From a virus, in UHGV virus genome UHGV-0312576: a stretch of 64,000 bases of DNA; one strand, 5' to 3'. Shown piece by piece: positions 30,270-58,476 of this stretch. Under the pieces are notes generated by a model. It was given only the letters and a program-made list of their open reading frames with translations. It was not told the DNA's origin and made no database searches. How positions within the stretch are numbered: position 1 is the first letter of the stretch; each line of letters begins with the position of its first letter. Both the position numbers and the translations under genes were made by a program.

Positions 30270-30287
30270 ACTAAATCAGAAGAAAGA

Positions 30288-42609: not shown

Positions 42610-42670
42610 TTAAACTGAAATTTCGGAAACGAATCAACCCGTGATTTCAAGGGAGATTGGAGTTTGAAAT

Positions 42671-42892
42671 ATGTTTAAAGTTATTTATAAAAAAAGTAAA
42701 GAGCATTATCGAAGTCTATTAATAAAGGCATCCGAGATGGGAATACCTGAGGATTATATAAGACATGCTTTAGAAATAGAAATATACGGAGTAAAAGATG
42801 ATAAACATGGATATCCTACATTTTTGATTAGAAGTGATAATCGGTGGATTTGGAAAAGTGCAAAACATTTTATTCCAGTAGAAGAGATATAG
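42671..42892 (+). CDS. hypothetical protein (73 aa)
   Basis: ORF track. RBS GGGAGA. Confidence 0.45.
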   Translation: MFKVIYKKSKEHYRSLLIKASEMGIPEDYIRHALEIEIYGVKDDKHGYPTFLIRSDNRWIWKSAKHFIPVEEI

Positions 42893-42940
42893 ACGGATGA
42901 AACTCACATTTAGTCTGGTACTCTGTGAAGGGAGAAAAGA

Positions 42941-43141
42941 ATGTTAGAGAAATTAATTGAATTATTGGGTGAAGACAATGTAAAGAAAATAGAGGATGGT
43001 ATCACTGAGATTATCTTAGATCGAATTAGGGCAGATGAAGTATCCAATTAAAGAGCGTGTGGCACGTATCGGAAATAGTGTAGTGCCGGTTATGGCTCAG
43101 GCATTAATCGAAGCTAATTGCCAAGAACTAATAGATGCATA
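42941..43141 (+). pseudogene. remnant of a C5-cytosine DNA methyltransferase C-terminus, split across two frames
   Basis: The +1 frame from 43050 reads 'KERVARIGNSVVPVMAQALIEA', which resembles motif X of C5-MTases. There is no upstream catalytic portion. The preceding 36-codon ORF (42941-43051) is in another frame. Confidence 0.3.
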
Positions 43142-43192
43142 ATTCAATCAAAAGAGATTGAAATACAATTTTTATCCGTTAACACGGAGAAT

Positions 43193-43762
43193 ATGTTATT
43201 GGAGGTGATAATCATAGGACTAAATATAGGTTATTTAACATCAGACACAGAAGATAATGAGCTTTATACACCAGCATTCGCTGTAGATCCGATTATAAAA
43301 TATCTTCCAAAAGATAAAATAATGTGGCTACCATTTGATGATGAGTGGTCGATGTTTTACCAGAGATTGACTGAGGAGGGTTTTAAAGTAATTAGAAGTT
43401 CATTATCTGAAGGAAAGGACTTTTTTGAATATGAGCCGGATACCTGGGACTTCATTGTAAGTAATCCACCGTTCAGCATCAAAGATAAAGTGTTAGAACG
43501 TCTATATTCATTCAACAAACCTTTTGCGGTACTTCTTCCGCTAAACTCCCTTCAAGGTAAAACAAGATACAAATATTTTAGCCAGGGCATTCAGCTCCTC
43601 AGTTTTGATGCAAGAGTTTCTTATCATGACAGAGAACATATGGATAAGCCGGTTAAGGGGAGTCCATTCGCAACGGCATACTTTTGTAGAGATGTACTAC
43701 CAAGGGATTTGATTGTGGAGAAGTTGATTACGTATGATAGACCTTTGATAGAGAATAATTAA
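43193..43762 (+). CDS. small N6-adenine DNA methyltransferase (phage Dam-like)
   Basis: 'DFIVSNPPFS' is an NPPF catalytic motif. 189 aa from the ATG at 43193. Confidence 0.55.
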   Translation: MLLEVIIIGLNIGYLTSDTEDNELYTPAFAVDPIIKYLPKDKIMWLPFDDEWSMFYQRLTEEGFKVIRSSLSEGKDFFEYEPDTWDFIVSNPPFSIKDKVLERLYSFNKPFAVLLPLNSLQGKTRYKYFSQGIQLLSFDARVSYHDREHMDKPVKGSPFATAYFCRDVLPRDLIVEKLITYDRPLIENN

Positions 43763-43859
43763 CTGGACAGGAAATTTTCATTTCATGCCTTTTCAACACG
43801 AGATATAGATGAAAATAGAGGAAATTAACAAGATATAGTATAAAAAAACAGGAGGTAAT

Positions 43860-45029
43860 ATGGCAGAAAGAGCATTAGCACATATTGAAAAGGTGGAATG
43901 GGTAAATCCAATCGAAGGAGCTGATAATATCGAACTTATTGGTATATTAGGTTGGGTTTGTGTTGCAAAAAAGGAGGAGTTTAGGCCGGGAGATATTGCT
44001 GTTTACATTGAGATTGATAGTAAATGTCCGGAAAATGATGAGCGATTTGCTTTTTTGGCAGCTAAACACTATAAAGTGAAAACTATGAAGTTAGGAAAAT
44101 TCAAAGTAATCAGTCAGGGGCTTGCATTACCAATTACTTTATTCCCGGAGTTTGCTGGTAAGAAAATTGGCGATGATGTAACCAATGAACTGAAAATTAC
44201 ATACTCTTCTCAGGAAGATATTAAGAGAAAATCAAATGGAGTTGATCCGGAAGCCAAGTATAAAGCAATGGCTAACAGGAAGCCTAATTTGTTTAAGAAG
44301 CCATTAGTACGGAAGATAATGAGGTACAAATTTGGACGTAAGTTAATGTTTTTGCTTTTTGGCAGAAAGAAAGATAATCCGAAGAAATTTCCTGATTGGA
44401 TTGTGAAGACTGATGAAACAAGAATTGAGAATGCTCCGTTTTATTTAAATAGTACAGATAAATGGGTTAAAACAGAGAAGTGTGATGGGACTAGCTGTAC
44501 GTATGCTGTTGACAGATTAAAAAAAGGGAAAAATAAATTTGATTTTATTGTGTGTAGTAGAAATGTACGGCAAGCAGATAGAAACCAAGAAACTTATCAC
44601 GACTCAAATATTTATTGGGAACTGGCAGATAAATATGGGATTGAAAAGATTCTTACTGATTTTGCAACAGAGAATAATTATAGCAGAGTGGTATTACAGG
44701 GAGAGGGAGTTGGTTCTGTTCAAGGAAATCCATATAAATTGAAGGAGAATGTACTATATGTATTTAATCTCATTATTGATGGAGTGAGGGCTGGAACTGT
44801 GGAAATGTCTAACTTTTGCAAGGCACATAATTTAACAAGTGTTCCAATTATTGATACTGAATGTGTATTGCCGAAGACTATGGAAGAAATGAAGCTTGAG
44901 GCTGATGGATATAGTGAGTTAAATCCAAAGGTAAAGAGAGAAGGATTTGTATATAGGAGTGTTGATGGACAACAGAGTTTTAAAAATGTTTCAAGAGAGT
45001 ATTTGTTAAAACATAATGGTAAGGAGTAA
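43860..45029 (+). CDS. ATP-dependent polynucleotide (RNA) ligase, nucleotidyltransferase superfamily
   Basis: Motif I 'TEKCDGTS' (KxDG). Motif IV-like 'VVLQGEGVG'. 389 aa. Immediately followed by a kinase-phosphatase gene. Confidence 0.55.
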   Translation: MAERALAHIEKVEWVNPIEGADNIELIGILGWVCVAKKEEFRPGDIAVYIEIDSKCPENDERFAFLAAKHYKVKTMKLGKFKVISQGLALPITLFPEFAGKKIGDDVTNELKITYSSQEDIKRKSNGVDPEAKYKAMANRKPNLFKKPLVRKIMRYKFGRKLMFLLFGRKKDNPKKFPDWIVKTDETRIENAPFYLNSTDKWVKTEKCDGTSCTYAVDRLKKGKNKFDFIVCSRNVRQADRNQETYHDSNIYWELADKYGIEKILTDFATENNYSRVVLQGEGVGSVQGNPYKLKENVLYVFNLIIDGVRAGTVEMSNFCKAHNLTSVPIIDTECVLPKTMEEMKLEADGYSELNPKVKREGFVYRSVDGQQSFKNVSREYLLKHNGKE

Positions 45030-45034
45030 ACGAG

Positions 45035-46099
45035 ATGTCAATACCAATTTTTACAATGATGGTAGGTTTACCTGGTAGTGGTAAATCTACCTACGCAGAA
45101 AAACTATCAAAAGAACGCAGCGCAATAATTTGTAGTTCTGATAAAGTTAGAGAAGATTTGTATGGAGACGAAAACTCGCAAAGCAACAATGATGAGGTTT
45201 TTAAATTATTACATAAAAGAATTAAAGAACTTCTTAAAGCAGGCGAAAGTGTTATTTATGATGCGACGAATATCAATTCCAAAAGACGTAGAGCATTTTT
45301 ATCTGAATTGAGAAGTATTCCATGTAAAAAGATTTGCGTGATAATGGCAACTTCATTGAAGAAGTGTTGTAGACAGAATAATTCTAGGAGCAGGACAGTT
45401 CCATATGAAGTTATTGAGAGAATGTATAAGAACTGGAATACCCCGTATTGGTTTGAAGGATGGGATGAGATTAAAGTTGCTTCGGAATATAAATTACCAA
45501 ACCTAATTTTTTGTTGGTTGACGGATTATATGGATTTTAATCAACAAAATCCAAATCATACTTTAACACTTGGGAAACACTCTATTGAAGTAGGGGATTA
45601 CTTTCCAGAAAATAGTTTATTGCGAGATGCTGGATACCTTCATGACTGTGGAAAGCCGTTTACAAAATCTTTTAATAACTCAAAGGGAGAAGAAACAAAT
45701 GTGGCGCATTATTATCAACATCATTGTGTAGGAGCTTATGATAGTTTGTTTTATGACTATTCAGAAGGCGTTGATAGATTAGACGGCTCTATTCTAATTA
45801 ATTTGCACATGATGCCTTATTTTTGGGAGAAAGACAAAGAGTACGGGGAGAAGACAAGGTTGAAATATAAGAAGCTATGGGGTGAGGAACTATATAACAA
45901 TGTGATGAAACTGCATGAGGCTGTGGAGTGGTGCCAACAGCATGGTTTGGAATTTGATGCTATTAACGAGAATCTACCGGAGACACTAGAGTGGCTTGGC
46001 GGAACTGAAAGTAGGAAAATTCACGCAGATGTCTTTATTGATGACAAGGCTGTTAATAAGCCAAAATATTGTGTGCCATATAAGGAGTGTACCATGTAA
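45035..46099 (+). CDS. polynucleotide kinase-phosphatase (P-loop kinase + HD phosphohydrolase)
   Basis: N-terminal Walker A 'GLPGSGKST'. C-terminal HD motif 'H...YLHDCGK'. Confidence 0.65.
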   Translation: MSIPIFTMMVGLPGSGKSTYAEKLSKERSAIICSSDKVREDLYGDENSQSNNDEVFKLLHKRIKELLKAGESVIYDATNINSKRRRAFLSELRSIPCKKICVIMATSLKKCCRQNNSRSRTVPYEVIERMYKNWNTPYWFEGWDEIKVASEYKLPNLIFCWLTDYMDFNQQNPNHTLTLGKHSIEVGDYFPENSLLRDAGYLHDCGKPFTKSFNNSKGEETNVAHYYQHHCVGAYDSLFYDYSEGVDRLDGSILINLHMMPYFWEKDKEYGEKTRLKYKKLWGEELYNNVMKLHEAVEWCQQHGLEFDAINENLPETLEWLGGTESRKIHADVFIDDKAVNKPKYCVPYKECTM

Positions 46100-46584
46100 T
46101 GGAGCAGCTGAATTACCTTAAACAAAAGATGATTCCTATTGTGAATCAATGTCTGAAGATACATGGCGGTGGAGAAAGCTATTTTGATGAATTAGACGGT
46201 CTGATTAAGAATGACATTGAGTTAATGGTTACATATCTTAAATATGCAGTAGAAAAAGAGAAGATTGAGAATGTGGTTGTATCTGGAGAAATTGGTCTTA
46301 TATTATCTAAGCTAATCAGCAAAAAGATTATTCCCATGGATGTTAATTTAATATGTCTGAATGGAGGGCTGCGTAAGGGGGAGGAGCCGGTGGGAACTAT
46401 CCCGCGTTACCAATCGTTCAAAGCCATCTTTTTCGATGACAGCTATTATAGTGGTAAGACGGCTATGGCAGTTCATGATTACATACATAAGTGTGGAGGA
46501 ACCATTGTGAAGAATTACGTTTTCTACGATGGTTGCTTAAAGAAACATGATGATGTGGATAGTCTATATCGGTATTACAAATAG
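46099..46584 (+). CDS. phosphoribosyltransferase-like domain protein
   Basis: PRPP-binding signature 'AIFFDDSYYSGKTAMAV'. TAATG overlap with the upstream stop. Confidence 0.5.
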   Translation: MEQLNYLKQKMIPIVNQCLKIHGGGESYFDELDGLIKNDIELMVTYLKYAVEKEKIENVVVSGEIGLILSKLISKKIIPMDVNLICLNGGLRKGEEPVGTIPRYQSFKAIFFDDSYYSGKTAMAVHDYIHKCGGTIVKNYVFYDGCLKKHDDVDSLYRYYK

Positions 46585-46624
46585 GCTGAAATTTCGGTTT
46601 CGTGTGAGGAGGTGGGTGGCGAAA

Positions 46625-46828
46625 ATGTCAATTTTGATGATTGAAGACCAGCTTGTAACGGTTAAGGGATCAGAAGTTCTGAAAGCGCAATTTGAGAATT
46701 ATTGTAGTTGGTGTTGGGGACACGGATACGGGAACTGTGATATGTGTAAAAGGGTTTATCACAGATATTATATTCCGATTAGAAAAAGAGAACTTCAAGA
46801 AAAATTGGGATTAAATGATATAAGATGA
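46625..46828 (+). CDS. small Cys/His-rich protein (67 aa)
   Basis: GGAGGTGGGTGG RBS. 'CSWCWGHGYGNCDMCK'. Confidence 0.45.
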   Translation: MSILMIEDQLVTVKGSEVLKAQFENYCSWCWGHGYGNCDMCKRVYHRYYIPIRKRELQEKLGLNDIR

Positions 46829-46869
46829 AAGTCGAGTTTCTTGTGCTAATAGAAATGGGGTGACAGAAA

Positions 46870-47205
46870 ATGGAGTGTCCATATTGTGGTAAAGAATTAA
46901 ACTGTGTAGACCATCATGGGACTGGAAGGCCGGAATGTTATTATGGAACGGCTGCTAACGGCATATATTATCCATCAACATATAACAAACTTGGTGACAT
47001 TTATAAATGCAGTAACTCTTTTGGGTTCAACAACAAAAGCGAAGCTATGGATTATATTAACGCTCAATCAGAAGCAGATTTAGAGAAATATATTAATGAT
47101 AATGAACTGGAAGACTGGATGGATATCGTCTGTGAGAGTGAAACATTTAATGAGAACTTCTACACAGACAATAATGAAAATTTATTTGAGGGTTATCCAT
47201 GTTAG
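46870..47205 (+). CDS. hypothetical protein with N-terminal CxxC (111 aa)
   Basis: ORF track. Confidence 0.5.
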   Translation: MECPYCGKELNCVDHHGTGRPECYYGTAANGIYYPSTYNKLGDIYKCSNSFGFNNKSEAMDYINAQSEADLEKYINDNELEDWMDIVCESETFNENFYTDNNENLFEGYPC

Positions 47206-47213
47206 GAGGTTGA

Positions 47214-47612
47214 ATGAAAGAACTTAGAATTATCATAGCTGGTGGGAGAGATTTTGACGATTTTGAATTACTTTACAAAAGTGTTGAGAAAATTCAGCTT
47301 GATTATGTTGATAGATATTTTGATGAATTATCAAGAGTTTGCATTGTAAGTGGAAACGCAAGAGGAGCTGATAAACTTGGCGAATTATATGCGAAGAGAA
47401 TGGGATTGCACATTTATATATGTCCAGCAGCGTGGGATTTATACGGAAAGAGTGCTGGTTACAGAAGAAATGCTGAAATGGCAAAGTTTGCTTCTGAAGA
47501 TGGTAACATTGGCGTACTGATTGCATTCTGGGACGGTAAGAGTCGAGGAACTAAACATATGATTGATTTGGCGAAGAGATATGGACTGAAAGTACATGCG
47601 GTGAACTACTAG
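47214..47612 (+). CDS. SLOG-superfamily (DUF2493/YspA-like) protein
   Basis: 'IIIAGGRDF', 'SGNARGADKLGELYA', 'PAAWDLYGKSAGYRRN' and 'AFWDGKSRGTKHMIDLA' match DUF2493. Confidence 0.6.
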   Translation: MKELRIIIAGGRDFDDFELLYKSVEKIQLDYVDRYFDELSRVCIVSGNARGADKLGELYAKRMGLHIYICPAAWDLYGKSAGYRRNAEMAKFASEDGNIGVLIAFWDGKSRGTKHMIDLAKRYGLKVHAVNY

Positions 47613-47628
47613 ATGGGAGAATATATAA

Positions 47629-47898
47629 ATGAAGAAAACAAAACAGATTGATACATATTATTGTGATTATTGCGGTAAAGAGTGTGAACAAACACCGGAA
47701 TATTTTATGCCAGAAATAAGAAAAGTACAATATACAAGCCGTTGCTCGAAAAATATTATTAGACCATCACAAAAGGATATTTGTCCAGTTTGCCAAAAGC
47801 AGATTGCGAAACTTATCAATCTCTTACATTATGCAGATTTTGTAGGTGATGATATGGAAAAAGTGGTATATGTGCTTTTGAAAAAGTCAAAGGCTTGA
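47629..47898 (+). CDS. zinc-ribbon protein (89 aa)
   Basis: ORF track. 'CDYCGK...CPVCQ'. Confidence 0.45.
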   Translation: MKKTKQIDTYYCDYCGKECEQTPEYFMPEIRKVQYTSRCSKNIIRPSQKDICPVCQKQIAKLINLLHYADFVGDDMEKVVYVLLKKSKA

Positions 47899-47953
47899 AA
47901 CTTTGGATTCGTGTGAAAGTGGGTGATTTAATATCATAAGAAATATAGATGAA

Positions 47954-48148
47954 ATGGCAGAAGATGAGTCATTGTGTGAATATTGTGATGCGGAACCTGG
48001 TTGGCATATGCCTGGTGGCGGTACTCCGTATTCTTGTGAAGGCGCATATTGTAAAGAAGCATATGAGTGCTATTTGAATGAATTGGGTATTTCCGATAGG
48101 GTTGTAAAGATTAAAAATAAAACAAAAGTGACGATAGAAAGGGATTAA
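47954..48148 (+). CDS. small Cys-rich protein (64 aa)
   Basis: ORF track. Confidence 0.4.
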   Translation: MAEDESLCEYCDAEPGWHMPGGGTPYSCEGAYCKEAYECYLNELGISDRVVKIKNKTKVTIERD

Positions 48149-48149
48149 T

Positions 48150-48719
48150 ATGGGGCAGATTTTAAAGATAGAATACGATATGGAAGACATGGTTCTTGGT
48201 ATTAAAGAAGCGGTTAAAGAAGAATTGAAGCCTGAAATTGCTGAGGAAATCCGAGAGGAAATCAAGTCAGAAATTAAGTCAGAGATTATGAATAAGGTAA
48301 AAGAACAGATTCCAGAGGATACATCGGTTTGGCTCAAAGATATTATGAAAGAAATTTATGATACAGAAATCATCAGAGTCGGTGGTGGATGGAACGAAGA
48401 TGATAAAGAATATACATTGAGAGAATATGTAATTGAACAGATTAAGGACAGGATTGTAAACAATGATTGTGGTTCAAAAAAGAGTTATTCTTCAACGTCA
48501 TTTAATGAATGGTTTAGAGATAAATGTGTAGATACTGATATACAGAAAGTGATCGATAGAGAAATCAAGACAATTCGTGATGATGTAAATAGCAAAGTAA
48601 AAAGTATGTTTGATAGCAGCACAAAGCAAATGTTATCAGAAGCGGTTCTGAATGTACTTATGGCGAATGATACATATAAGAAAATCGAAAGCAATATTGG
48701 TAGTATAGCTTCAAAATAA
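48150..48719 (+). CDS. hypothetical protein with an EEIxxEIK repeat-rich N-terminus (189 aa)
   Basis: ORF track. Confidence 0.5.
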   Translation: MGQILKIEYDMEDMVLGIKEAVKEELKPEIAEEIREEIKSEIKSEIMNKVKEQIPEDTSVWLKDIMKEIYDTEIIRVGGGWNEDDKEYTLREYVIEQIKDRIVNNDCGSKKSYSSTSFNEWFRDKCVDTDIQKVIDREIKTIRDDVNSKVKSMFDSSTKQMLSEAVLNVLMANDTYKKIESNIGSIASK

Positions 48720-48761
48720 GGTTTGAAATCTTGGTTTCCTGTGTACGGGGAGGATAATAGT

Positions 48762-49010
48762 ATGGATCAAAATAAATCAGATTATGAAATATATCTATCG
48801 TTATTACAAAATGCAAATATTAAACATGTTACTACAAAGGGAGACTTCCCAGAGAGTTTATATGATAATTTGTATATCGCTACATATGCATCTTATAGCG
48901 ATAGTATAATAACTGTTCATCAATTTAAAGAGTCTGGTAAATTATGTGATATTTATATTGCAGATGCATGTAAAACTTTGGAAGAGTTTTTGAATTATAC
49001 ATCAGAATAA
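48762..49010 (+). CDS. hypothetical protein (82 aa)
   Basis: GGGGAGGA RBS at the internal Met. Confidence 0.45.
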   Translation: MDQNKSDYEIYLSLLQNANIKHVTTKGDFPESLYDNLYIATYASYSDSIITVHQFKESGKLCDIYIADACKTLEEFLNYTSE

Positions 49011-49084
49011 ACCATCGTTTCATGAGAAATAAAGGAGCGTGAAAAAGTAGTAAAAATCGGTTAGAAGAAAGGTGGTGAAAAGTA

Positions 49085-49459
49085 GTGCATCCGAGCAAAT
49101 TCTTTGAAGAGGTAGGTTGTCGGACTCACATGGATGTGTTTGAACAATATGATCCCTATATCAAGGAGCAGCTTAAAAATGTGCATCCTTTGAATTTCAT
49201 AAAAACCAGGGTTACACTTCCGGTTTTCAAGATTACAATTTCATATAGTACAATAAAAGGTAATCTTCGCCATACGGAAAAGTATATTGTTTTAGACAAC
49301 TCACATCTAGAATCATCAGACTCATTTAATTTATATGTTGAATCAAATGTGCAAATGGAATGTGATTCCTATAACTCGGCTCATCCAAAGAATCCGATGC
49401 TAGATTTTATGATAAATAAGATTGAATTCGTTTGTGACGCTGTGCTACCAATTGGGTAG
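49085..49459 (+). CDS. hypothetical protein (start uncertain, GTG at 49085 or ATG at 49130)
   Basis: ORF track. Confidence 0.35.
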   Translation: MHPSKFFEEVGCRTHMDVFEQYDPYIKEQLKNVHPLNFIKTRVTLPVFKITISYSTIKGNLRHTEKYIVLDNSHLESSDSFNLYVESNVQMECDSYNSAHPKNPMLDFMINKIEFVCDAVLPIG

Positions 49460-50635: not shown

Positions 50636-50637
50636 AT

Positions 50638-51246: not shown

Positions 51247-51495
51247 ATGACAAATGTAGAGAAAATTGATTATATGATTCAGTCATTGCAGATAGCAAAA
51301 GAAGAGATATCATATGCTCAGAGGTGGGCAGAGAAGTATAAGATAGACACAGAGCATTGTTGGACGGAGCGGATTCCTAATGGAACAATAATTCGTGAGT
51401 CACTAAAGATGGTCGGTCGCATGGCAAATATCGTAGCGAATAATGTTGTTTTAAGTCCGTATTCCAAGGATGTGTTTAAACATGATGAATCATGA
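51247..51495 (+). CDS. hypothetical protein (82 aa)
   Basis: ORF track. RBS GATGAGGTG. Confidence 0.45.
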   Translation: MTNVEKIDYMIQSLQIAKEEISYAQRWAEKYKIDTEHCWTERIPNGTIIRESLKMVGRMANIVANNVVLSPYSKDVFKHDES

Positions 51496-51530
51496 ATTTC
51501 CTCTGTTAAATAAGGTAGGTATGAAAGTAT

Positions 51531-51800
51531 ATGACTATAAAGAAAATCCCATGTACATATGGAGAATATGAGTTTTATGAAACCATAAATAATACAGAAG
51601 TTAGAATTGCCTCATTAACAGGACAACTTGTGGGGCATTCAAAAATGTTCCTTACTATGTATTTTCCAGCAAGAGAATGTTCAGAAGTGATTCTTGATTT
51701 AAAGTATCATGCTTATGAAGAAGTGTTAGAAAAAGCAATGAGAATCATAAGGAAGAAGATGTATGTTGCAGCACAAGAAATATTAAATGGAATACGATAA
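51531..51800 (+). CDS. hypothetical protein (89 aa)
   Basis: ORF track. Confidence 0.45.
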   Translation: MTIKKIPCTYGEYEFYETINNTEVRIASLTGQLVGHSKMFLTMYFPARECSEVILDLKYHAYEEVLEKAMRIIRKKMYVAAQEILNGIR

Positions 51801-51839
51801 AATGCGACTTTCGAGCAAGGATAAAGGAGGAAAATTTAT

Positions 51840-52004
51840 ATGACAAGAATAACAGATAGAAACACCAATGGTTCCATAGATATTCTGGATGATTGGGGAA
51901 GATGTAGGTATACAATTCAAGGCAATGAGACTGGTTTGATTGCAGATATTGGTAGGAAACTTGCTGAATATGAAGATGATGCGGAAGTAATTGAGAATGA
52001 GTAA
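51840..52004 (+). CDS. small hypothetical protein (54 aa)
   Basis: AAAGGAGG RBS. Confidence 0.4.
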   Translation: MTRITDRNTNGSIDILDDWGRCRYTIQGNETGLIADIGRKLAEYEDDAEVIENE

Positions 52005-52005
52005 T

Positions 52006-52209
52006 ATGACAGATTTAGAACGGTTTGAAGATGCTTTGGTAACAGTTGGTATTGAGTATAATAAGAGGATTTTCCAACCTAAAAATTTTCCCAAAGTGAT
52101 CGAACTTGATATAAATGAGAAATATATTTATATGTCATATAGTAATTCAGTAAGTATTAGATTTGATGAAGATGGGAAATTTACCTGTTTTGAAGCTTTT
52201 GGAGAATAA
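52006..52209 (+). CDS. hypothetical protein (67 aa)
   Basis: Internal Met of ORF-track entry 51991-52209, directly after the upstream stop. Confidence 0.4.
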   Translation: MTDLERFEDALVTVGIEYNKRIFQPKNFPKVIELDINEKYIYMSYSNSVSIRFDEDGKFTCFEAFGE

Positions 52210-52251
52210 GCAGTAAATGTAGGTTTCATGACGTGAAAAGGAGAGAAAAGA

Positions 52252-52683
52252 ATGAGACACAGAATTGGTGGATTAGAGAATGTATATATGGGATTAGGTG
52301 CAGATAATATTCCATATGAATTAGACAATACGTGGAGTGGACATAAGGAATTAGATACTGTGGCAGATAAAATGTTAGATGATGCGGTAGAAACACTATT
52401 TGCAGAAATCGGCGGCTTTGATTATAAGGTTACTTGCAACAATAATTCATTTAAGATTTTATTCGGAAGAGAACCAGCGTATAAGCACGACCCGTATCAG
52501 ATGTGTACAATAACCACTTTATATAATGAGTGCAATATTAAACGTGGAACAGCTAGAGGCTATTATGGTGAAGACGTTGAGATTGAATATGACAAAAATA
52601 TTTCAGATGCAGATTGTGATAAAGCATTTGTAGAATTTGTTAACAAGTGGCATCCACAACTGCTAGAGGCTATGAAGTGTTGA
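52252..52683 (+). CDS. hypothetical protein (143 aa)
   Basis: ORF track. RBS AAAGGAGAG. Confidence 0.5.
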   Translation: MRHRIGGLENVYMGLGADNIPYELDNTWSGHKELDTVADKMLDDAVETLFAEIGGFDYKVTCNNNSFKILFGREPAYKHDPYQMCTITTLYNECNIKRGTARGYYGEDVEIEYDKNISDADCDKAFVEFVNKWHPQLLEAMKC

Positions 52684-52700
52684 TTTCGAGAGGAGATGTT

Positions 52701-52973
52701 ATGGGAAGATTAATTGATTCAGATAAAGTGTCTACAAAGATATATTTGACTGGATGTCGTACTAATCAGATTGAAGAAGCGATTGACAATACAGAAACTG
52801 CATTTGATATGGATATGGTTCTGGAGCAGCTTGAAGACTATGGAAAGTTTAAGGGAGTACTTCGCTGCGAAGGTGAGAGCTTTGAAAACTACATACCAGT
52901 ATCAGTGGCAAAGCTGATTGTGAAGGGGCGTGGCCTGGGTGGAGTCCTGGGATATGTGGAAGAAAACTTATGA
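52701..52973 (+). CDS. hypothetical protein (90 aa)
   Basis: GAGAGGAG RBS at the internal Met. Confidence 0.45.
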   Translation: MGRLIDSDKVSTKIYLTGCRTNQIEEAIDNTETAFDMDMVLEQLEDYGKFKGVLRCEGESFENYIPVSVAKLIVKGRGLGGVLGYVEENL

Positions 52974-52974
52974 G

Positions 52975-53400
52975 AAGAAGATTTATATAGAAATACCTTT
53001 GAAAAAGGTATCTAGTAATTCCCTGCTAAATACCTTTCACCTGAGTTTCTTCCATTACCTTGTCAATTTTTCTTCCGTGATTCAACGGTCACTTGGGAAC
53101 TGGACTTCGTCTCTTATTCGCTATATCCAGGGTAATATAGAGTTTTTAGACAAAACTTCGCAATTTATGGTATCAGGAACCTTAACAATAGATGTCCCAG
53201 CTACGAAGTTCGTGAAGTAATGGTGCAGGGCAAATTCAAAACTGCCTTCAAACTAGTGCCCTCCAGCTCATTAGATTTGCCCTAGAAGGAGCAAGATAAT
53301 TATACATAATTTTGAACAATATAATAACAATAAATTAGAGAAATTTTATGAAGTAAAAGCAACAGAATGAATTCTAGTTTTCATGTGAATTGCATAGAGG
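52975..53400. other. 420-bp non-coding tract with hairpins and a long-range inverted repeat
   Basis: ATACCTT/AAGGTAT hairpin at 52994-53013. AGGGCAAAT (53227-53235) and ATTTGCCCT (53275-53283) lie 39 nt apart. The + strand is pyrimidine-rich. The overlapping ORF-track entry 52930-53220 is judged spurious. Confidence 0.3.
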
Positions 53401-53403
53401 GGA

Positions 53404-53655
53404 GTGTTTAGATTGGATTTAGTGAAAGTTGATATTGACGAACTTAGGTATCGTATAAATAAATTTGAACAGTGCACAAATAAAGAAGCCTATCTTATTA
53501 TGAGCGGCAATACAATGAGTTGCTTGGAGAGTATATATCCATTTACTATATGGCATTCAGTAGAATATTCCAAAACAGGAATTGTCGCAGAATTTGACCA
53601 TAGAAAGATATTTATCGATAAAGATATTGCTTTTGGAAAAGTCGAAATACGATGA
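53404..53655 (+). CDS. hypothetical protein (83 aa), paralog of the gene at 56079 (both end FGxxEIR)
   Basis: ORF track. Shared 'KVDI...Y....Q.AYL.MS.NTM......I......FGKVEIR' pattern. Confidence 0.5.
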   Translation: MFRLDLVKVDIDELRYRINKFEQCTNKEAYLIMSGNTMSCLESIYPFTIWHSVEYSKTGIVAEFDHRKIFIDKDIAFGKVEIR

Positions 53656-54269
53656 AGCACGTCTTTCATATTATTACAGGGGGGGGGGATGAAAAAATAA
53701 AACAAATAATAAAACTGATGAAAATATTAATATCTAAATATGAATTAAAACACCCAGAAAATGAATCACCAGTCTATATTTGTGAAAATATTAATACTCG
53801 AAACAGATATAAAAATGAAAGATATAAGATTCCAGAAGATCAACCTCAGTGTCCCGTTTATAAAGACAATCGTTGCTGTGGTGGGTGTAAGTTAGCTCCT
53901 GAATGTGAACATTGTGTTGATTGTGGTTGCTATGGTTTTACAAAAGTTCACATGGGAGGAACAGATAAGAATTACTATTTGCACAAGGCATCTAATAATT
54001 ATGGTATAGGACGAATAGGCAAAGACGGAAAATTTGATTGGAACTACTACTATTTTAATAAAAAGCGGAAAGAGCTTAAGGTTGGTAAATATATTTTACA
54101 GAACAATAAAATATATGAAATTAAGTCATCTCCAAGTCGCAACGGTAAGTTCACAGCCCTAGAAATTGGTACAGATAATTATGTGAGACTTAACATAAAT
54201 GAAATGGAAAATTATATGTCTACATACGATAGCAAAGAGCAACTTATGTTATACAATAAAATGACATGA
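53652..54269 (+). CDS. Cys-rich protein (205 aa) with a G10 homopolymer in codons 9-13
   Basis: ORF track. ATGA overlap with the upstream stop. 'CCGGCKLAPECEHCVDCGC'. Confidence 0.45.
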   Translation: MKHVFHIITGGGDEKIKQIIKLMKILISKYELKHPENESPVYICENINTRNRYKNERYKIPEDQPQCPVYKDNRCCGGCKLAPECEHCVDCGCYGFTKVHMGGTDKNYYLHKASNNYGIGRIGKDGKFDWNYYYFNKKRKELKVGKYILQNNKIYEIKSSPSRNGKFTALEIGTDNYVRLNINEMENYMSTYDSKEQLMLYNKMT

Positions 54270-54281
54270 AAAATCGGTTTC

Positions 54282-54683
54282 GTGTGGAAAGGAGAGAATC
54301 AGTTGCAGTTAGATAAAATAACAGAGGATAAGATTAGAGAACAATTTCGTTCATATGAATTTCAAAATTTTATGTTTGAAATGCTTGTTGGCAACTCAAG
54401 GGACGAAAATGGAGAATTATTTAAACATGTGTATAATTGCGAATTAGAGGAGACAGAAAACGAATTAATATATTTAATTGAATCGCATGTCAATCACAAT
54501 ATTTTACTAAATAGAAATACAATTATCTCGTTTATATTGAGACATGTTGTGACTGAGCTATTTAACAGTGATTTGAATTGTAATCATATTAAATTCTTTG
54601 CTTTATGTAATCAGCTTTATTATATGGTGTTTAAAGAAATACAAAAGTACTATAAACCTTTCATGCTTAAGGAGAATATATAA
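54282..54683 (+). CDS. hypothetical protein (133 aa)
   Basis: ORF track. RBS GGAAAGGAGAG. Confidence 0.45.
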   Translation: MWKGENQLQLDKITEDKIREQFRSYEFQNFMFEMLVGNSRDENGELFKHVYNCELEETENELIYLIESHVNHNILLNRNTIISFILRHVVTELFNSDLNCNHIKFFALCNQLYYMVFKEIQKYYKPFMLKENI

Positions 54684-55463
54684 ATGGCAATTATAGGAGC
54701 AATTTTAGGTGACATAGCTGGTTCCAGATGGGAGTTTCGTAGACCGAAAGGTTTAGACTGGGAACACATTGATTTATTTACAGATGATTGTTTCCTCACG
54801 GACGATACGGTTTTGACCGTAGCAACAAAATATGCTTTGCAGAATAATGTTTCATTCAAAGAAGCGTACCACAAGTTTGGAAATAAATATCCAAATTGCA
54901 GTTACGGCTGTGGCTTCGAGTCCTGGTTGGGGTCTAAGTGGAGCAAGCCGTACAATAGTTTTGGTAATGGTGCTGCTATGAGAGTATCACCTGTTGTAGA
55001 CTTATGTGAGTCACGATTAGAGGTAAGTTACGTTTCTAAAGAAAGTGCATTATGTACTCATAATCATCCAGAGGGAATTAAAGGAGCCAAGGTTACGGCA
55101 ACGTGTGCCTGGATGGCAAAGAGAGGCGCATCGAAGAAAGAAATTGAAGAATATGCCTGTAGAAAATATCCGTCTGATGAGTATATGTTTCCGGTGTCGA
55201 TGTCTTTAAAAGAATTAAGAGAAAAATATAGATGGAACGAAACTTGCCAAGGAAGTGTGCCAGTAGCAATCAGATGTTTTCTGGATAGTGAGGATTATGA
55301 GAGCTTCATCAGAAATGTGTTGAGTCTGCCATGTGATACCGATACATTGTGTGCTATTGGTGGAGGTATTGCTGAAGAATTTTATCATGGGACAGGCTTT
55401 AATGCGGACAAGTTGATGAGAGAATACTTGGATGAATATTTATATGAAATTGTGAAAGCGTAA
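54684..55463 (+). CDS. ADP-ribosylglycohydrolase family protein (DraG/ARH-like)
   Basis: 'GAILGDIAGS', 'FTDDT', 'GNGAAMRVSP' and 'GGDTDT'-type 'CDTDTLCAIGGG' motifs. Confidence 0.65.
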   Translation: MAIIGAILGDIAGSRWEFRRPKGLDWEHIDLFTDDCFLTDDTVLTVATKYALQNNVSFKEAYHKFGNKYPNCSYGCGFESWLGSKWSKPYNSFGNGAAMRVSPVVDLCESRLEVSYVSKESALCTHNHPEGIKGAKVTATCAWMAKRGASKKEIEEYACRKYPSDEYMFPVSMSLKELREKYRWNETCQGSVPVAIRCFLDSEDYESFIRNVLSLPCDTDTLCAIGGGIAEEFYHGTGFNADKLMREYLDEYLYEIVKA

Positions 55464-55479
55464 AGGAGAATAAGAAACT

Positions 55480-55755
55480 ATGAAGAAGAAAATATTAAAT
55501 CTTTTATTAATGGGAATGATGCTGATGACCTTACTTACAGGTTGTCAAAGTGTAGCAAAGTCTATGGGCGGTTCCATGACACTGAAATTGGAATCAAATC
55601 AAAAGTTAGAGGAGATTACATGGAAAGATGATTCTCTTTGGTATTTGACCAGGCCGATGACGGAGAATGATATTGCAGAGACTCATACATTTCAACAATC
55701 TACTGATTTTGGGGTGTTTGAGGGTACAGTTACCATTGTAGAGACAAAGGAGTAA
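55480..55755 (+). CDS. small lipoprotein (lipobox LLTGC)
   Basis: Signal peptide 'MKKKILNLLLMGMMLMTLLTGCQS'. Confidence 0.6.
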   Translation: MKKKILNLLLMGMMLMTLLTGCQSVAKSMGGSMTLKLESNQKLEEITWKDDSLWYLTRPMTENDIAETHTFQQSTDFGVFEGTVTIVETKE

Positions 55756-55770
55756 GAAGGGAATACATAT

Positions 55771-56070
55771 ACGAAGAAGTTATTTATCAGTCAGCCAATG
55801 AACGGCAAAACAGACGAATAAATTTTATCAGAAAGAGAAATTGCTATTACAAAAGCAAAGGAATTTGTTGGTGAAGAAGTAGAAATAATTGATACATTTT
55901 ATACGAATTTTTCTTCAGACGCAAAACCCCTTGAATATCTGGCTAGAAGTATTGCTGATTTAGCAAAAGCGGATGTAGCATATTTTGCAAAAGGTTGGGA
56001 TGAGAAGCGTGGCTGCAAGATTGAATATGAGTGTGCTACTCAATATGGAATTGCTACTATTACGGATTAG
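55771..56070 (+). pseudogene. DUF4406-like (nucleoside 2-deoxyribosyltransferase-like superfamily) gene with no valid start and an in-frame TAA
   Basis: The frame reads 'KKLFISQPMNGKTDE-stop-ILSEREIAITKAKEF...ADVAYFAKGWDEKRGCKIEYECATQYGIATI'. The TAA is at 55819-55821. The only in-frame ATG (55798) sits 7 codons before the stop. ACG occupies the expected start position. Confidence 0.35.
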
Positions 56071-56078
56071 GAGAAAAT

Positions 56079-56339
56079 ATGAAAGTTGATATTTCAAAGA
56101 AAATTATTACTTTAGATAATCAAAAACTATCTGATGAAATTGAGAAATATGAGTGTATTAGCAATCAGACAGCGTACTTATTTATGAGTCAGAACACAAT
56201 GAAAGCGTTGACTGATTTAATAGCAACGAGAATTCCATTTATGGAAATTAATACAGATGATTGTATTCTTGCTAAATATAAGGAAAGAAAAGTATTTCAG
56301 AACGATGAGCTGGAATTTGGTGAAATAGAAATCCGATAA
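56079..56339 (+). CDS. hypothetical protein (86 aa), paralog of the gene at 53404
   Basis: GGAGAAAAT RBS. C-terminal 'FGEIEIR'. Confidence 0.5.
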   Translation: MKVDISKKIITLDNQKLSDEIEKYECISNQTAYLFMSQNTMKALTDLIATRIPFMEINTDDCILAKYKERKVFQNDELEFGEIEIR

Positions 56340-56442
56340 AACTTCGATTTCCTGTGAAAAATTGGAGAATAAAATAATGTAACAAGGTAGTAATACCTAA
56401 AATATAAAATTCAAAATCAAAGATTAAAAGGAGAAAATAACT

Positions 56443-57084
56443 ATGACGACAGAAAAAATGACGGTACATAAAGCCCTGGCAGAACTGAAAATTATTGATG
56501 ACAGAATTATTTCTGCAATTAACGGAGGAACATACTGTGTAGCAAATAAGCACTCTAACGAAAAAATTAAAGGTGTTTCAGTTGACGAATACAAAGGTGT
56601 AATACAAGGCTACTACGACAAAGCAACAGATTTAATTAGGCGTAGAAACGCAATTAAGAGAGCGGTTGTTTTATCAAATTCTACAACAAAAGTTTCTATA
56701 AATGGAGAAGAATACACAAGAGCCGAAGCTATTGAAATGAAGAATCACGGTGTAGAGTTTGATGAGAGAATGCTTGAAATGCTTAATAAACAGTATAACA
56801 AGGCACAGGCAGAAATTCTCAAACAAAACGGCGATGACCTTGAAAAGCGGGCAGAGCAGTACGTTATTGGAATTTATGGTTCTAAAGAAGGAAAAACCAA
56901 CACAGATGATTTTGAGAAAACCAAAAAGGATTTTATGACGGCTAATGCCTTTGAACTGGTAGATCCGATTAAAATTCTGGACAAAATTAATGCCCTCGAA
57001 GATAAAATTGCCTCTTTCAAGGCTGAGGTTGACGCAGCATTGTCGGTCAGTAATGCAATTACTGAAATAGAGATTAGCTATTAG
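56443..57084 (+). CDS. hypothetical coiled-coil protein (213 aa)
   Basis: ORF track. RBS AAAGGAGAA. Confidence 0.5.
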   Translation: MTTEKMTVHKALAELKIIDDRIISAINGGTYCVANKHSNEKIKGVSVDEYKGVIQGYYDKATDLIRRRNAIKRAVVLSNSTTKVSINGEEYTRAEAIEMKNHGVEFDERMLEMLNKQYNKAQAEILKQNGDDLEKRAEQYVIGIYGSKEGKTNTDDFEKTKKDFMTANAFELVDPIKILDKINALEDKIASFKAEVDAALSVSNAITEIEISY

Positions 57085-57563
57085 CGAATAGTTAATTAAG
57101 ATTATTCACTGTTTACTGAAAACTTAAAACTACAACTCATTAGACTTTTGCAGATATAGTCTCATGTAAAGCGAAAAAGAAATCTGTAAATATAATGCAA
57201 ATATTATCAAATGAAATTAAAATCTATGATAAATATTTGTATAATTTCACAAGTAAAACAGTACATATAACTTGGCATAAAATGGTGCGACCATTAGCTA
57301 AGTACATGTAAGTATTATGAAATTATACTACTATACTATAAATTATTGCTTCCAGATGCGAGAAGCGTGTACTGTAAAGCTTAAAGTTATAAGGCTCAAA
57401 AAGTAAAGCTGAAAATTCAAAGTTTAAATCATGAGTCAAAGTTGAAATAGTAAATAGTAAAGATATAAAGTTTTATCAAATCCTTGATATACAGTTTAGC
57501 ATAGTTGTACTTGGCTATAAGCATCTGCAAGGCTGGTAAATAGTGAGTAATCTATAAAAATAA

Positions 57564-57637
57564 TGGGCATTCGCCAAGCGGTTAAGGCACAGGACTTTGA
57601 CTCCTGCATTACGTTGGTTCGAATCCAACATGCCCAG
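57564..57637 (+). tRNA. tRNA-Gln (anticodon TTG)
   Basis: Acceptor TGGGCAT/ATGCCCA. D arm GCC..GGC. Anticodon stem CAGGA/TCCTG with loop CTTTGAC. T arm GTTGG-TTCGAAT-CCAAC. Confidence 0.75.
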
Positions 57638-57640
57638 TTC

Positions 57641-57709
57641 TCACCATAGTTAGTCCCATTAGCTAACACAGCTAAACCGCCAGGGACGGCGGTGGCTATG
57701 GTGATACCA
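57641..57709 (+). other. tRNA-sized, non-canonical hairpin element sitting between two tRNAs
   Basis: 8-bp terminal stem TCACCATAG/CTATGGTGA encloses two hairpins (AGCT-aacac-AGCT and CCGCC-agggacg-GGCGG). No standard D, anticodon or T arms. The 3' end is ...ACCA. Confidence 0.3.
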
Positions 57710-57783
57710 GGATCATTAGCTCAGTTGGTCAGAGCATCCGGCTCATAACCGGACGGTCATCTGTTCGAGTCAGATATGATCCA
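57710..57783 (+). tRNA. tRNA-Met (anticodon CAT; could equally be Ile2/lysidine type)
   Basis: Acceptor GGATCAT/ATGATCC. D arm GCTC..GAGC. Anticodon stem TCCGG/CCGGA with loop CTCATAA. T arm ATCTG-TTCGAGT-CAGAT. Confidence 0.8.
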
Positions 57784-57785
57784 TA

Positions 57786-57850
57786 AGGCCGGTTCGACTC
57801 CGGCTCAATAGCAGAGGGCATGGTGCGACGGGGTGATGGTTCGACTCCAT
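57786..57850 (+). other. two stacked T-arm + acceptor-3' tRNA fragments with no 5' halves
   Basis: GCCGG-TTCGACT-CCGGC-TCAATAG and GATGG-TTCGACT-CCATC-TGATTTG. No complementary acceptor 5' strands are present upstream. Confidence 0.35.
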
Positions 57851-58169
57851 CTGATTTGTCTTTCAGAAGTGACGTGTCTGGGAGTAACCTGGGTAGGACA
57901 AGACTCATCCGCATGGTAAGGTGGATGTAAAACTGTCAAAGATTCCAGTTCAAAAGAGAATAAAATGAGGGAGGTATTATGTTTATATAAGGAGTTTATA
58001 ATGTTTATACAGCCGACGATGAAGATCCAAAATGTATAAGATGTGACAACGTTAATAATGATACTATTTGTATCACTCGCTGTGGTGAAAAACATGGATG
58101 GAATGGATATGAGAGAAGAGAATCAATAATGCAGAAGAATAAAAGATAAATGTTTGCTTTCCTAGGGAG

Positions 58170-58436
58170 GTGAGTGTAATAGATAAAACAGAAATAAGAT
58201 CAGAGATAATTAAACGGAGAATACATTATTTCTACTGTGATAATTGCGGTGAATATCTGGGCGCTGTTGAAGAATGTGATGATGGATATTACCATAGTCC
58301 AGGAGAATATAATTTGCCTATTCGTGTGGATAGTGTATGGTTTAGATATAATCAGCAATTGTGCGAAGAATGTAGAAAACAATTTATTGATACATTGAAA
58401 AATACATTGATTAATTTGGGATTTAAACCGGAATAA
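58170..58436 (+). CDS. zinc-ribbon protein (88 aa)
   Basis: ORF track. 'CDNCG...CEEC'. Confidence 0.4.
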   Translation: MSVIDKTEIRSEIIKRRIHYFYCDNCGEYLGAVEECDDGYYHSPGEYNLPIRVDSVWFRYNQQLCEECRKQFIDTLKNTLINLGFKPE

Positions 58437-58476
58437 ACCCACGTTTCATAGGAGGTGATTTAATATAGCGAAGGAT

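Follow-up and report, generated by a model that had tools for sequence, protein, structure and literature searches.

What kind of element recurs at the boundaries between small genes in the virus genome UHGV-0312576? We analyzed a 64,000-nt stretch of this genome (the window), in which an initial annotation had described a motif of about 21 nt immediately upstream of the ribosome-binding site (RBS) of at least eight genes and had offered three readings of it: a promoter for the element's own sigma factor (35646-36320), an RNA operator for a translational regulator, or a gene-boundary recombination sequence like the PeSL elements of T4-type phages. The window has a GC content of 35.5%, with nearly all genes from 10.6 kb onward on the + strand, and we read it as part of a large SPbeta-like prophage of Lachnospiraceae. 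We favor, with a probability of roughly 55%, the reading that the motif is a protein-bound DNA boundary element delimiting exchangeable gene slots in this prophage. This reading builds on the motif itself, its strict spacing, its position, its persistence at orthologous boundaries and its coincidence with breakpoints, all of which are observed directly.

The recurrent unit is a dyad-symmetric core of 13-15 nt, T-R-AAA-N6-TTTC, with the extended consensus aTGAAAt-N4-rTTTCat; the invariant part of the core is AAA-N6-TTTC. At least 38 copies occupy short gaps that separate small genes of the same direction, at 14.5-31.8 kb and 42.6-62 kb (Table 1), so that the count of "at least eight genes" was true but too low, and a looser version precedes many more genes when all upstream regions are read. 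All ten sites of the initial annotation are present in the DNA at the coordinates given for them, including seven "clear" copies, all on the + strand at 46.5-56.4 kb. Recurrence of the annotated 21-nt unit thus holds, but its delimitation does not, as the clear 21-mers consist of the core plus an nTGTGA leader of the downstream gene. Two of the sites described as weak (51799 and 58435) are ordinary cores, and the third (42616-42652) is a composite of a left half, 21 nt and a right half. The palindrome GAAATTTC, proposed as the center of the motif, is found in copy 46587 only, and the general dyad is instead GAAA-N6-TTTC.

We measured enrichment with a spacing scan and with counts of fixed patterns, which are the unbiased tests. 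On the + strand, AAA-Nk-TTTC occurs 32 times at k = 6 and 7-15 times at each other k between 0 and 15; 25 of the 32 copies are intergenic, compared to 1-8 at the other spacings, with intergenic DNA accounting for 12,921 of the 64,000 nt by a crude gene call. RAAA-N6-TTTC was found 24 times on the + strand and 21 times on the - strand (6.3±2.0 per strand in shuffles), TGAAA-N6-TTTC with at most one mismatch 87 times (45±9 shuffled, shuffle maximum 67), and the 20-mer GAAANTTCGGTTTCGTGTGA with at most three mismatches four times versus 0.01 expected. With a weight matrix derived from these seven clear copies, the copies themselves scored 21.7-31.4 bits and the next best site on either strand of the 64 kb scored 13.8. 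A second matrix, iterated from 25 intergenic copies (consensus ATGAAAT-N4-ATTTCAT, then n-W-G-n-G), yielded 49 + strand sites of at least 9 bits, 38 of them intergenic, against 11.6±3.1 in shuffles; the bit scores in Table 1 come from this matrix, which was seeded from intergenic copies of the window. The fixed patterns are thus enriched over a shuffled background. In motif discovery, which the initial annotation had recommended, an unseeded expectation-maximisation run on upstream regions converged on the Shine-Dalgarno sequence alone, and the motif was recovered by the spacing scan and the seeded matrix that we used in its place. Most sites also match on the opposite strand, the consensus being dyad-symmetric, and what matches on the minus strand is the palindromic mate of a + strand site. 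Each position of the right arm TTTC has an information content of 1.1-1.5 bits. Conservation is lower in the left arm, in part because G and A alternate at position -1 with TGA and TAA stop codons. An exact search of IMG/VR with the strong-class pattern returned seven single matches, mostly chance by a rough estimate, and no description of the motif was found in the literature searched.

The placement of the cores points to the gene that precedes them. At 27 of the 33 intergenic sites of at least 12 bits, an upstream stop codon lies within 16 nt of the core start, and at 12 of the 33 the core and this codon overlap. The next start codon follows TTTC at a median distance of 24 nt (range 8-630 nt); cores 24308, 42898, 43770 and 61962 have no nearby downstream gene, and core 31750 lies between convergent genes. 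Because the core hugs the upstream stop more closely than the next start, the motif is tied to the 3' end of the upstream gene and not to the RBS. The end of TTTC is 1-10 nt from the Shine-Dalgarno sequence. The reported distance of 10-20 nt to a start codon applies to five of the seven clear copies but fails for 47896 (37 nt) and 56337 (82 nt), measured to the next canonical start. There are no cores in the minus-strand operon at 4.8-7.8 kb, in the region of sigma-A-like promoters and divergent small helix-turn-helix (HTH) genes at 10.7-14.5 kb (none between 10,644 and 14,562), in the tiny-gene array at 38.6-40.2 kb or in the replication module downstream of the window.

Evidence for a boundary function comes from near-identical relatives, found in many gut metagenomes and one isolate genome, which differ from the window by replaced, inserted or deleted segments. 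We compared relatives that are 97-100% identical to the window over most of their length, reading the ends of shared blocks base by base (labels such as L016 denote loci of relatives). Of 32 unique junctions, ten are at most 3 nt away from an outer core edge (P = 1.5e-14 with a uniform null, 1.1e-11 with intergenic-only positions and junctions), and none of the 32 falls inside a core. A census of all family loci placed 17 of 50 junctions within 3 nt of a core edge. Among the + strand gene boundaries that these comparisons span, 11 of 33 with a core are breakpoints, versus 3 of 55 without (odds ratio 8.7, p = 0.0016). Counted from the C of TTTC, shared blocks end at offset 0 (20558, 27015, 43784 and 48738), +1 (46841), +2 (53384) and +3 (51815); counted from the first A, they start at 0 (49009) and -1 (21015, 47897 and 54268), with further starts at the degenerate cores (27485 and 43160). 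A second group of junctions is located 10-18 nt further on, past a shared Shine-Dalgarno sequence (22007-22011 and 58459). The annotated TGTGA tail is on the variable side of junctions 46841, 48738 and 53384, which identifies it as the leader of a subset of downstream cassettes and not as part of the core.

Where a cassette is swapped, both flanking cores are identical in the two genomes, N6 included (48738/49009, 46841/47897, 27015/27485 and 53384/54268), and an exchange of the downstream gene leaves the core next to the upstream one. For example, different relatives have an open reading frame (ORF) of 82, 107 or 54 aa behind core 48724, and all of them rejoin at core 49007, and a deletion inside the 107-aa cassette of L016 stops exactly at the first A (49009) of that core. 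In an independent lineage, a block of 98% identity between L004 and L005 starts at a core (-1) and ends past a core and its Shine-Dalgarno sequence (+18). The same junctions appear in assemblies of different samples and pipelines and in the isolate genome; this recurrence, together with the fact that cores of different slots share far fewer identical bases than an assembler k-mer, makes chimeric assembly an unlikely source. Identity profiles along diverged relatives show shifts from identical to diverged sequence within genes too, so cores are not needed for ordinary homologous exchange.

Several other rearrangements were noted in the same comparison. A junction at core 15521 was set aside as uninformative, as the ORF at this place is longer in L025 and the window has a deletion in it. 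Single relatives carry clean deletions of about 260 nt away from cores, at 25106-25366 (L026) and 56721-56980 (L018/L038). In relatives that have 5.4-5.7 kb of other genes at 45902-45923, the C-terminal part of the kinase-like gene (45035-46099) stands as a gene of its own, of 117 aa; the extra genes encode an ABC transporter, or a cation ATPase with TerD and PspA, and a 22-nt stretch of the window stands on both sides of that junction.

The motif also persists beyond this group of relatives. Matrix matches number seven in L004, three in L003 and three in L005, all distant low-GC relatives (0.2-0.5 expected), and four in L044 (0.3 expected), with L003 and L044 using the variant TAAAA-N5/6-TTTT[A/G]. 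Loci with homologues of the recombinase (49-97% identity) carry the motif, including 8-10 exact copies of TRAAA-N6-TTTC in L062, L067 and L068. It is absent from the higher-GC (43-48%) relatives L046-L052, where the gaps measure 12-27 nt, and SPbeta contains TGAAA-N6-TTTC at background counts only. At one orthologous boundary, after a 189-aa gene, the window reads TGAAA-TCTTGG-TTTC, L044 (79% protein identity) TAAAA-GAAATA-TTTC and L001 (63%) TGAAA-TAGAGGG-TTTA, the last with a 7-nt center and a deviant right arm; the centers and the distance from the stop codon differ among the three. The window's own deviant arm ATTC (20546 and 47898) is TTTC in relatives. Arms and approximate spacing are maintained, and the center is free over long time scales. 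A different repeat, CCCTGC-N8-GCAGGG, occupies three consecutive gaps between stop codon and Shine-Dalgarno sequence at 460-1610 of L054, a related Lachnospiraceae contig with 43% GC, where its 3' half overlaps the Shine-Dalgarno sequence.

In the model that we prefer, the core punctuates arrays of small co-directional accessory genes, following or overlapping one stop codon and preceding the next RBS, and its two half-sites, about one helical turn apart, would bind a phage-encoded DNA-binding protein of two-fold symmetry. Conserved half-sites around an unconstrained center, in degenerate copies, are the usual signature of such a symmetric protein. Cassettes would then be replaced, gained or lost flush with the outer core edges, while the core and its site-specific 6-nt center are kept. 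Selection for intact signals alone is an unlikely cause of the flush junctions, given offsets of 0-3 despite a spacer of 10-60 nt at 43784, 27015, 48738 and 46841. Three mechanisms might produce them. A crossover could take place within cores that are identical in both partners, limited to equal centers if a recombinase drives it. Alternatively, once a cassette is broken, resection could be stopped by the protein on the core, followed by homology-free end joining; bearing on this, the phage encodes Ku and a ligase of the non-homologous end joining (NHEJ) type, and the L016 deletion stops at the first A of a core. Or template switching could take place at a protein roadblock.

As the candidate binder we prefer, on circumstantial grounds, a protein of the tyrosine-recombinase fold, because the array encodes catalytic and core-binding proteins of this type, because MrpR provides a precedent in SPbeta and because the arms surround a 6-bp center. 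In the standard layout of tyrosine-recombinase core sites (lox/FRT, dif modules), inverted arms flank a 6-bp center, and in recombinase-mediated cassette exchange a cassette is swapped between two sites of different centers, with both sites retained. The present motif resembles them in its inverted arms, its strict 6-nt spacing from AAA to TTTC and its symmetric consensus. At sites of this type a cognate recombinase binds and cuts at the edges of a central region of 6-8 bp, and the present cores might be used likewise. A stricter version, which we regard as quite unlikely, would make the cores heterospecific sites akin to lox variants, with two sites of common arms but unlike 6-bp centers on either side of each slot and a (possibly two-piece) tyrosine recombinase exchanging DNA only between equal centers. 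Co-infecting or co-resident relatives could then swap single cassettes in register, and intragenomic deletions and inversions would be avoided. The lack of hybrid cores and the identity of flanking cores in both partners are compatible with this version; other models predict the same.

A number of points weigh against our preferred reading. Conservation of the left arm is weak, with either G or A at -1, which leaves the palindrome imperfect, and the second matrix was trained on the window itself, so that it serves to list sites and not as proof. About half of the breakpoints lie away from cores, e.g., at 45902-45923 (in the kinase gene), 52803, 25106/25366 and 56721/56980, and two thirds of the cores are not breakpoints among the sampled relatives. 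The variant cassettes have no homologues elsewhere in the window, where we found only diverged alleles of the same slot and one HNH paralogue. Nearly all genes of the arrays are on one strand, a geometry that by itself is compatible with an orientation-dependent function at the RNA level. The candidate recombinase proteins lack pairwise BLASTP similarity to MrpR or YopP, and the catalytic-domain protein may simply be the prophage integrase. Finally, the binding protein and the way in which DNA is cut and joined are inferred only.

If the core were instead a purely regulatory operator, its copies would be repressor or silencer sites that quiet the early arrays, and breakpoints would coincide with them through selection on operators and compact boundaries. 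The setting lends this account some force: there are many copies in short gaps of early one-directional arrays, often on stop codons, as with stoperators (PMC3029335), in SPbeta-like phages a repressor of the recombinase fold binds a repeated intergenic element that twice abuts the Shine-Dalgarno sequence (PMC10516654), half-sites are conserved around a free center, and some junctions lie 10-18 nt past the core, after the shared Shine-Dalgarno sequence, as selection on expression signals would give. We nevertheless judge it unlikely, since junctions heap at offsets 0 to +3 despite 10-60 nt of unconstrained spacer, the L016 deletion ends precisely on the first base of a core, and the 10.7-14.5 kb region, with its sigma-A-like early promoters and divergent HTH genes, has no core where the primary operators of a master repressor would be expected; in addition, the motif is unlike the repeated element SPBRE, and SPbeta does not have it. 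Passive homology of the PeSL type, with cores kept for an unrelated reason and offering short patches to general recombination, also between different cores, would account for breakpoints at cores with a concept established for T4-type phages (PMC2839356, PMC4122927), in a population where ordinary homologous exchange is also present (identity shifts inside genes). However, different cores have just 4-7 nt per arm in common, no chimeric core with a switched N6 was seen in 32-50 junctions although PeSL exchanges create chimeric elements (PMC2839356), and within the window no cassette was found at two different slots. We thus consider passive homology decidedly improbable. The recombination proposal in the initial annotation is borne out in substance by the breakpoints at cores in relatives, but the promoter and terminator by which a PeSL is defined are lacking, and chimeric cores were not seen.

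The other two proposals of the initial annotation invoke expression and are not supported. A signal in polycistronic mRNA, such as a translational operator, a coupling or re-initiation signal or a processing site, would fit a position between stop codon and Shine-Dalgarno sequence in co-directional operons, with a right arm that often abuts the latter (e.g., TTTCAAGGGAGG) and informative copies all in the same orientation relative to genes; the GC-rich inverted repeat of L054, at the equivalent position and with its 3' half overlapping the Shine-Dalgarno sequence, also speaks for it. On the other hand, variable positions pair no more often than in shuffles, and C at +12 is kept where A stands at -1 (a weak G..C / A..T association, p = 0.03, was rejected as confounded by lineage and is absent within the window). 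Folding of ten intergenic RNAs gave the GAAA/UUUC stem as the minimum-energy structure in two, and no better stability than shuffles in any (z from -0.9 to +0.8). Known protein-RNA hairpin operators show the opposite of conserved stem letters with a variable loop, which is the pattern of half-sites and center here. For several cores the nearest downstream start is 40-630 nt away, one core has convergent genes on its two sides, and an RNA signal leaves the flush breakpoints unexplained, all of which makes it improbable. As for a promoter read by the sigma factor at 35646-36320 or by another phage RNA polymerase, from which each small gene would be transcribed separately, the window does encode an ECF-like sigma-70-family protein there, one element per gene would suit shuffled cassettes, and the left arm TGAAA resembles some ECF -35 boxes. 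Yet the conserved blocks are 6 nt and not about 17 nt apart, the core lacks a -35/-10 pair at 16-18 nt, and the only conserved element downstream, at 16-18 nt included, is the Shine-Dalgarno sequence. A sigma-70-type start would fall in or past that sequence, and with TTTC 1-10 nt before it, a transcript starting downstream of the core would lose its RBS. At 41-60.5 kb, sigma-70-like promoter sites (75 vs 81.9±7.5 in shuffles) and terminator-like sites (10 vs 8.0±3.2) are not enriched. The core remains with the upstream gene on downstream swaps, some cores have no downstream gene, and the dyad symmetry is unexplained; a promoter is therefore very improbable. Known host boxes and sites (cre, Rex, ARG box, CodY, ComK, parS, Type I restriction and Dnd GAAC/GTTC) are not known to fit the 5-6-5 pattern.

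We compared the proposed boundary element with known repeats. Closest in effect is PeSL, likewise a conserved intergenic element among small ORFan-like genes in hyperplastic regions (PMC2839356, PMC4122927), to which insertions, deletions and replacements of close relatives map and which has been proposed as a linker for modular shuffling. PeSL is about 100 bp long, with a strong sigma-70 promoter and a terminator stem-loop (PMC2839356, PMC4122927), whereas the present core measures 13-18 bp and has neither. Crossovers inside PeSL give chimeric PeSLs and mini-circles, in contrast to the junctions at outer edges and the absence of chimeric cores seen here. Closest in setting is SPBRE, the SPbeta repeated intergenic element bound by the recombinase-fold repressor MrpR (PMC10516654): the background is SPbeta-like, short intergenic repeats sometimes lie directly 5' of the Shine-Dalgarno sequence, and tyrosine-recombinase-fold proteins are encoded in the same gene arrays. 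From the SPbeta genome we read SPBRE as about AAAAAATATGTATAT, upstream of aimR, yopM, yopV and yorE, a sequence unrelated to TGAAA-N6-TTTC; it has about 10 copies in promoter regions, compared to at least 38 copies inside operons for the present motif, and no link of SPBRE to mosaic junctions is reported (PMC10516654).

The 17-bp dyad repeats of Cluster O mycobacteriophages, TGTTCGG-N3-CCGAACA, have no reported function (PMC4351075). They resemble our cores in exceeding 30 copies, in dyad symmetry, in lying mostly in or near gaps of small-gene arrays and in lacking a meaningful orientation; they differ in sequence and spacing, one third are inside genes, and no tie to stop codons, or systematically to breakpoints, has been described. 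Cluster O phages also encode Ku. The stoperators of Cluster A phages are asymmetric 13-mers oriented with transcription; they are identical to the early lytic operator at the promoter, and the repressor binds them as a monomer (PMC3029335, PMC9283540). Their 24-34 or more copies in short intergenic regions of one-directional operons recall the 38 intergenic sites here, but the present site has dyad symmetry, and the immunity and promoter region contains no copy. Integron attC sites are 55-140 bp long, with R''-L''...L'-R' boxes and a conserved AAC...GTT, and travel with the upstream ORF. The arrays share with them an imperfect inverted repeat behind each promoterless ORF of a one-directional cassette array; unlike attC, the core spans 13-18 bp with GAAA/TTTC arms of 5-7 bp, and both flanking cores stay put. 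The best NCBIfam match to an integron integrase (TIGR02249) scored 45.9 bits against a cutoff of 265 and covered the catalytic region only, and neither attI nor Pc was identified. In Cluster K, start-associated sequences (SAS; PMC3203893, described in PMC4351075) are similarly repeated near many translation starts, but they are linked to translation initiation, and the present core stands apart from the Shine-Dalgarno sequence and is tied to the upstream stop.

Phage genomes are mosaics, and T4-type PeSLs are the main case of a boundary sequence. The idea of conserved boundary sequences is known, and what is new is best described as a short palindromic element, almost certainly bound by a protein, that marks exchangeable slots. 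An element of 13-18 bp that matches cassette boundaries to the nucleotide is here found in a prophage family very common among assemblies, where a single protein of the family has entries in 669 blocks of the collection. Among the accessory genes in the slots are those for an ADP-ribosylglycohydrolase, tRNA-repair enzymes, TerD, PspA and transporters, so the element would map the sites of rapidly changing host-interaction genes. It makes testable which protein binds, whether exchange is catalyzed or passive, and what enters the slots, and if a recombinase is involved, the cores would constitute a natural set of orthogonal cassette-exchange sites.

The assignment of the prophage derives its SPbeta likeness from genes downstream of the window, which encode a YorF-family protein, a RecJ-like protein, a PolIII-alpha-type polymerase and a RecD2-like helicase. 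Annotated in the window, besides the ECF-like protein, are a GmrSD-like protein, an RNA ligase with a kinase domain, a PAPS-reductase-like protein, a RelA/SpoT-domain protein, an antirepressor domain, a ParB-like protein and an HNH endonuclease. Proteins of the window recur as exact copies in 227-697 blocks of the assembly collection, both on contigs as long as 649 kb and in the isolate assembly GCA_000371645.1; the GTDB relatives are Lachnospiraceae, and those in IMG/VR lie on contigs of 100-156 kb. No DNA match was obtained among cultured phages in a megablast search with 46.0-56.5 kb, and protein searches gave distant matches only, to RNA ligases and Bacillus phage G.

The candidate partners of the core are a stand-alone core-binding domain, which also has a weak precomputed match to Pfam MrpR_N_CB beside Phage_int_SAM families, and a catalytic-domain protein with a full set of catalytic residues (GLRGGD, K, HGLRKT, GHSDVRITRKY) and no core-binding domain (Table 1). 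A tyrosine recombinase appears to be present in two pieces about 1.9 kb apart, with a variable slot (27016-27484) and a ParB-like/DGQHR-like gene among the DNA between them.

Table 1. Cores, candidate partner proteins and end-joining genes in the window. Blocks are segments shared with relatives; "annotated copy" marks sites of the initial annotation.
Feature	Coordinates	Strand	Bits	Remarks
Core CTAAATCAATATTTC	14562..14576	+	12.8	L025 homology block begins exactly here
Core TGAAAGGTAGATTTC	16817..16831	+	19.4	exact match; TGA is upstream stop codon
Core AGAAATTGTGATTTT	17519..17533	+	14.5	
Weak core ACAAAAAGCAATTTC	18252..18266	+	9.7	L025 homology block ends at 18267
Core AGAAATTCACATTTC	18788..18802	+	15.6	second right arm follows
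Core TGAATCAATGATTTG	20224..20238	+	14.6	
Core TGAAATGTACCATTC	20544..20558	+	11.9	block end 20558; L025 has consensus arm TTTC
Core GGAAATGCACGTTTA	21014..21028	+	13.6	block start 21015
Core TAAAATATACTTTTC	21979..21993	+	14.9	TAA is upstream stop; block ends past Shine-Dalgarno, 22007-22011
Core TGAAATACATGTTTG	22531..22545	+	19.5	block start 22528
Core TGAAACATAGGTTTC	24308..24322	+	19.9	next gene 81 nt off
Core AGAAAGGATTATTTC	25786..25800	+	17.6	
Core TGAAATAATAGATTC	26380..26394	+	14.4	
Core TGAAATTTGAGTTTA	26666..26680	+	18.0	
Core TAAAATCTAAGTTTC	27001..27015	+	11.9	stop codon of 101-aa core-binding-domain ORF; block end exactly 27015 in five relatives
Degenerate core TAAAATTAGATATTC	27486..27500	+		block start 27485; relative TGA vs window TAA, identity from AAA
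Core AGAAAGATTGATTTC	30281..30295	+	19.7	
Core AGAAATAACTATTTG	31750..31764	+	14.4	between convergent genes, no + strand gene downstream
Composite site TGAAATTTCGG, 21 nt, GATTTCAAGGGAG	42616..42652	+	15.4 (right half)	
Core TGAAACTCACATTTA	42898..42912	+	16.0	TTTC to next start codon 280 nt
Degenerate core TGAAATACAATTTTT	43159..43173	+		one mismatch; block common to L016/L017 starts at 43160
Core GGAAATTTTCATTTC	43770..43784	+	16.8	block end exactly 43784
Core TGAAATTTCGGTTTC	46587..46601	+	20.9	annotated copy 1; cassette leader GTGTGA at 46602-46607
Core TGAAAGTCGAGTTTC	46826..46840	+	16.8	annotated copy 2; TGA is upstream stop; block end 46841 in L034, L039, L041, L042
Core TGAAACTTTGGATTC	47896..47910	+	18.8	annotated copy 3; block start 47897
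Core TGAAATCTTGGTTTC	48724..48738	+	20.7	annotated copy 4; block end exactly 48738
Core ATAAACCATCGTTTC	49007..49021	+	16.8	block start 49009; L016 deletion ends at first A
Core TGAATCATGAATTTC	51486..51500	+	14.8	overlaps end of gene 51247-51495
Core TAAAATGCGACTTTC	51798..51812	+	12.2	annotated copy (weak); block end 51815
Core GTAAATGTAGGTTTC	52213..52227	+	15.2	
Core TGAAGTGTTGATTTC	52673..52687	+	16.1	overlaps stop codon of 52252-52683
Core TGAATTCTAGTTTTC	53368..53382	+	18.9	annotated copy; block end 53384
Core TGAAAAATCGGTTTC	54267..54281	+	19.4	annotated copy; TGA is upstream stop; block start 54268
Core TAAAACTTCGATTTC	56337..56351	+	22.8	annotated copy
Core TAAATGTTTGCTTTC	58147..58161	+	14.5	
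Core ATAAACCCACGTTTC	58433..58447	+	17.7	annotated copy (weak); blocks end past Shine-Dalgarno, 58459, in many relatives
Core TGAAAATCTTATTTC	59298..59312	+	11.6	exact match, both strands
Core TAAAATTCCTATTTT	59692..59706	+	16.1	
Core TGAAAGAGCTGTTTC	61962..61976	+	14.5	exact match, both strands; TTTC to next start codon 114 nt
Candidate partner: 101-aa stand-alone tyrosine-recombinase core-binding domain	26698..27003	+		Phage_int_SAM_1; matches XerC/XerD positions 2-95
Candidate partner: Xer/IntI-like tyrosine-recombinase catalytic-domain protein	28898..29773	+		PF00589; phrog_216 integrase
Ku and adjoining NHEJ-type ATP-dependent ligase domain	7881..9601	+		Ku_bact 233 bits (cutoff 150)

Individual sites and genes showed further peculiarities. 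Past core 56337 and a Shine-Dalgarno-like GGAG there is only an ATG followed by TAA (56377-56382), and the next real gene starts at 56443. The 13-mer GGTGATTTAATAT directly follows the Shine-Dalgarno sequence in two cassettes (47919-47935 and 58450-58467), with no canonical start at the usual distance; relatives carry GGAGGTGATAAATG in its place at 58459. In L056, a conjugative-element-like insertion (7860-12273, with ParB_N and a TraG/TrwB-type coupling protein) lies in the homologue of gene 18291-18788, and gene 27518-27832 contains an internal direct repeat of 235 nt (67% identity, at 27534-27831). The element also has two IS110-family transposase genes, both on the - strand (2310-3596 and 40251-41444). 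A non-coding stretch of 1.1 kb holds a RAGATH-27 RNA at 57105-57188 (Rfam RF03100, 93.7 bits, gathering score 76.1) together with tRNA-Gln (57564-57637) and tRNA-Met (57710-57783) genes, and a second tRNA-Gln gene is located at 34846-34920.

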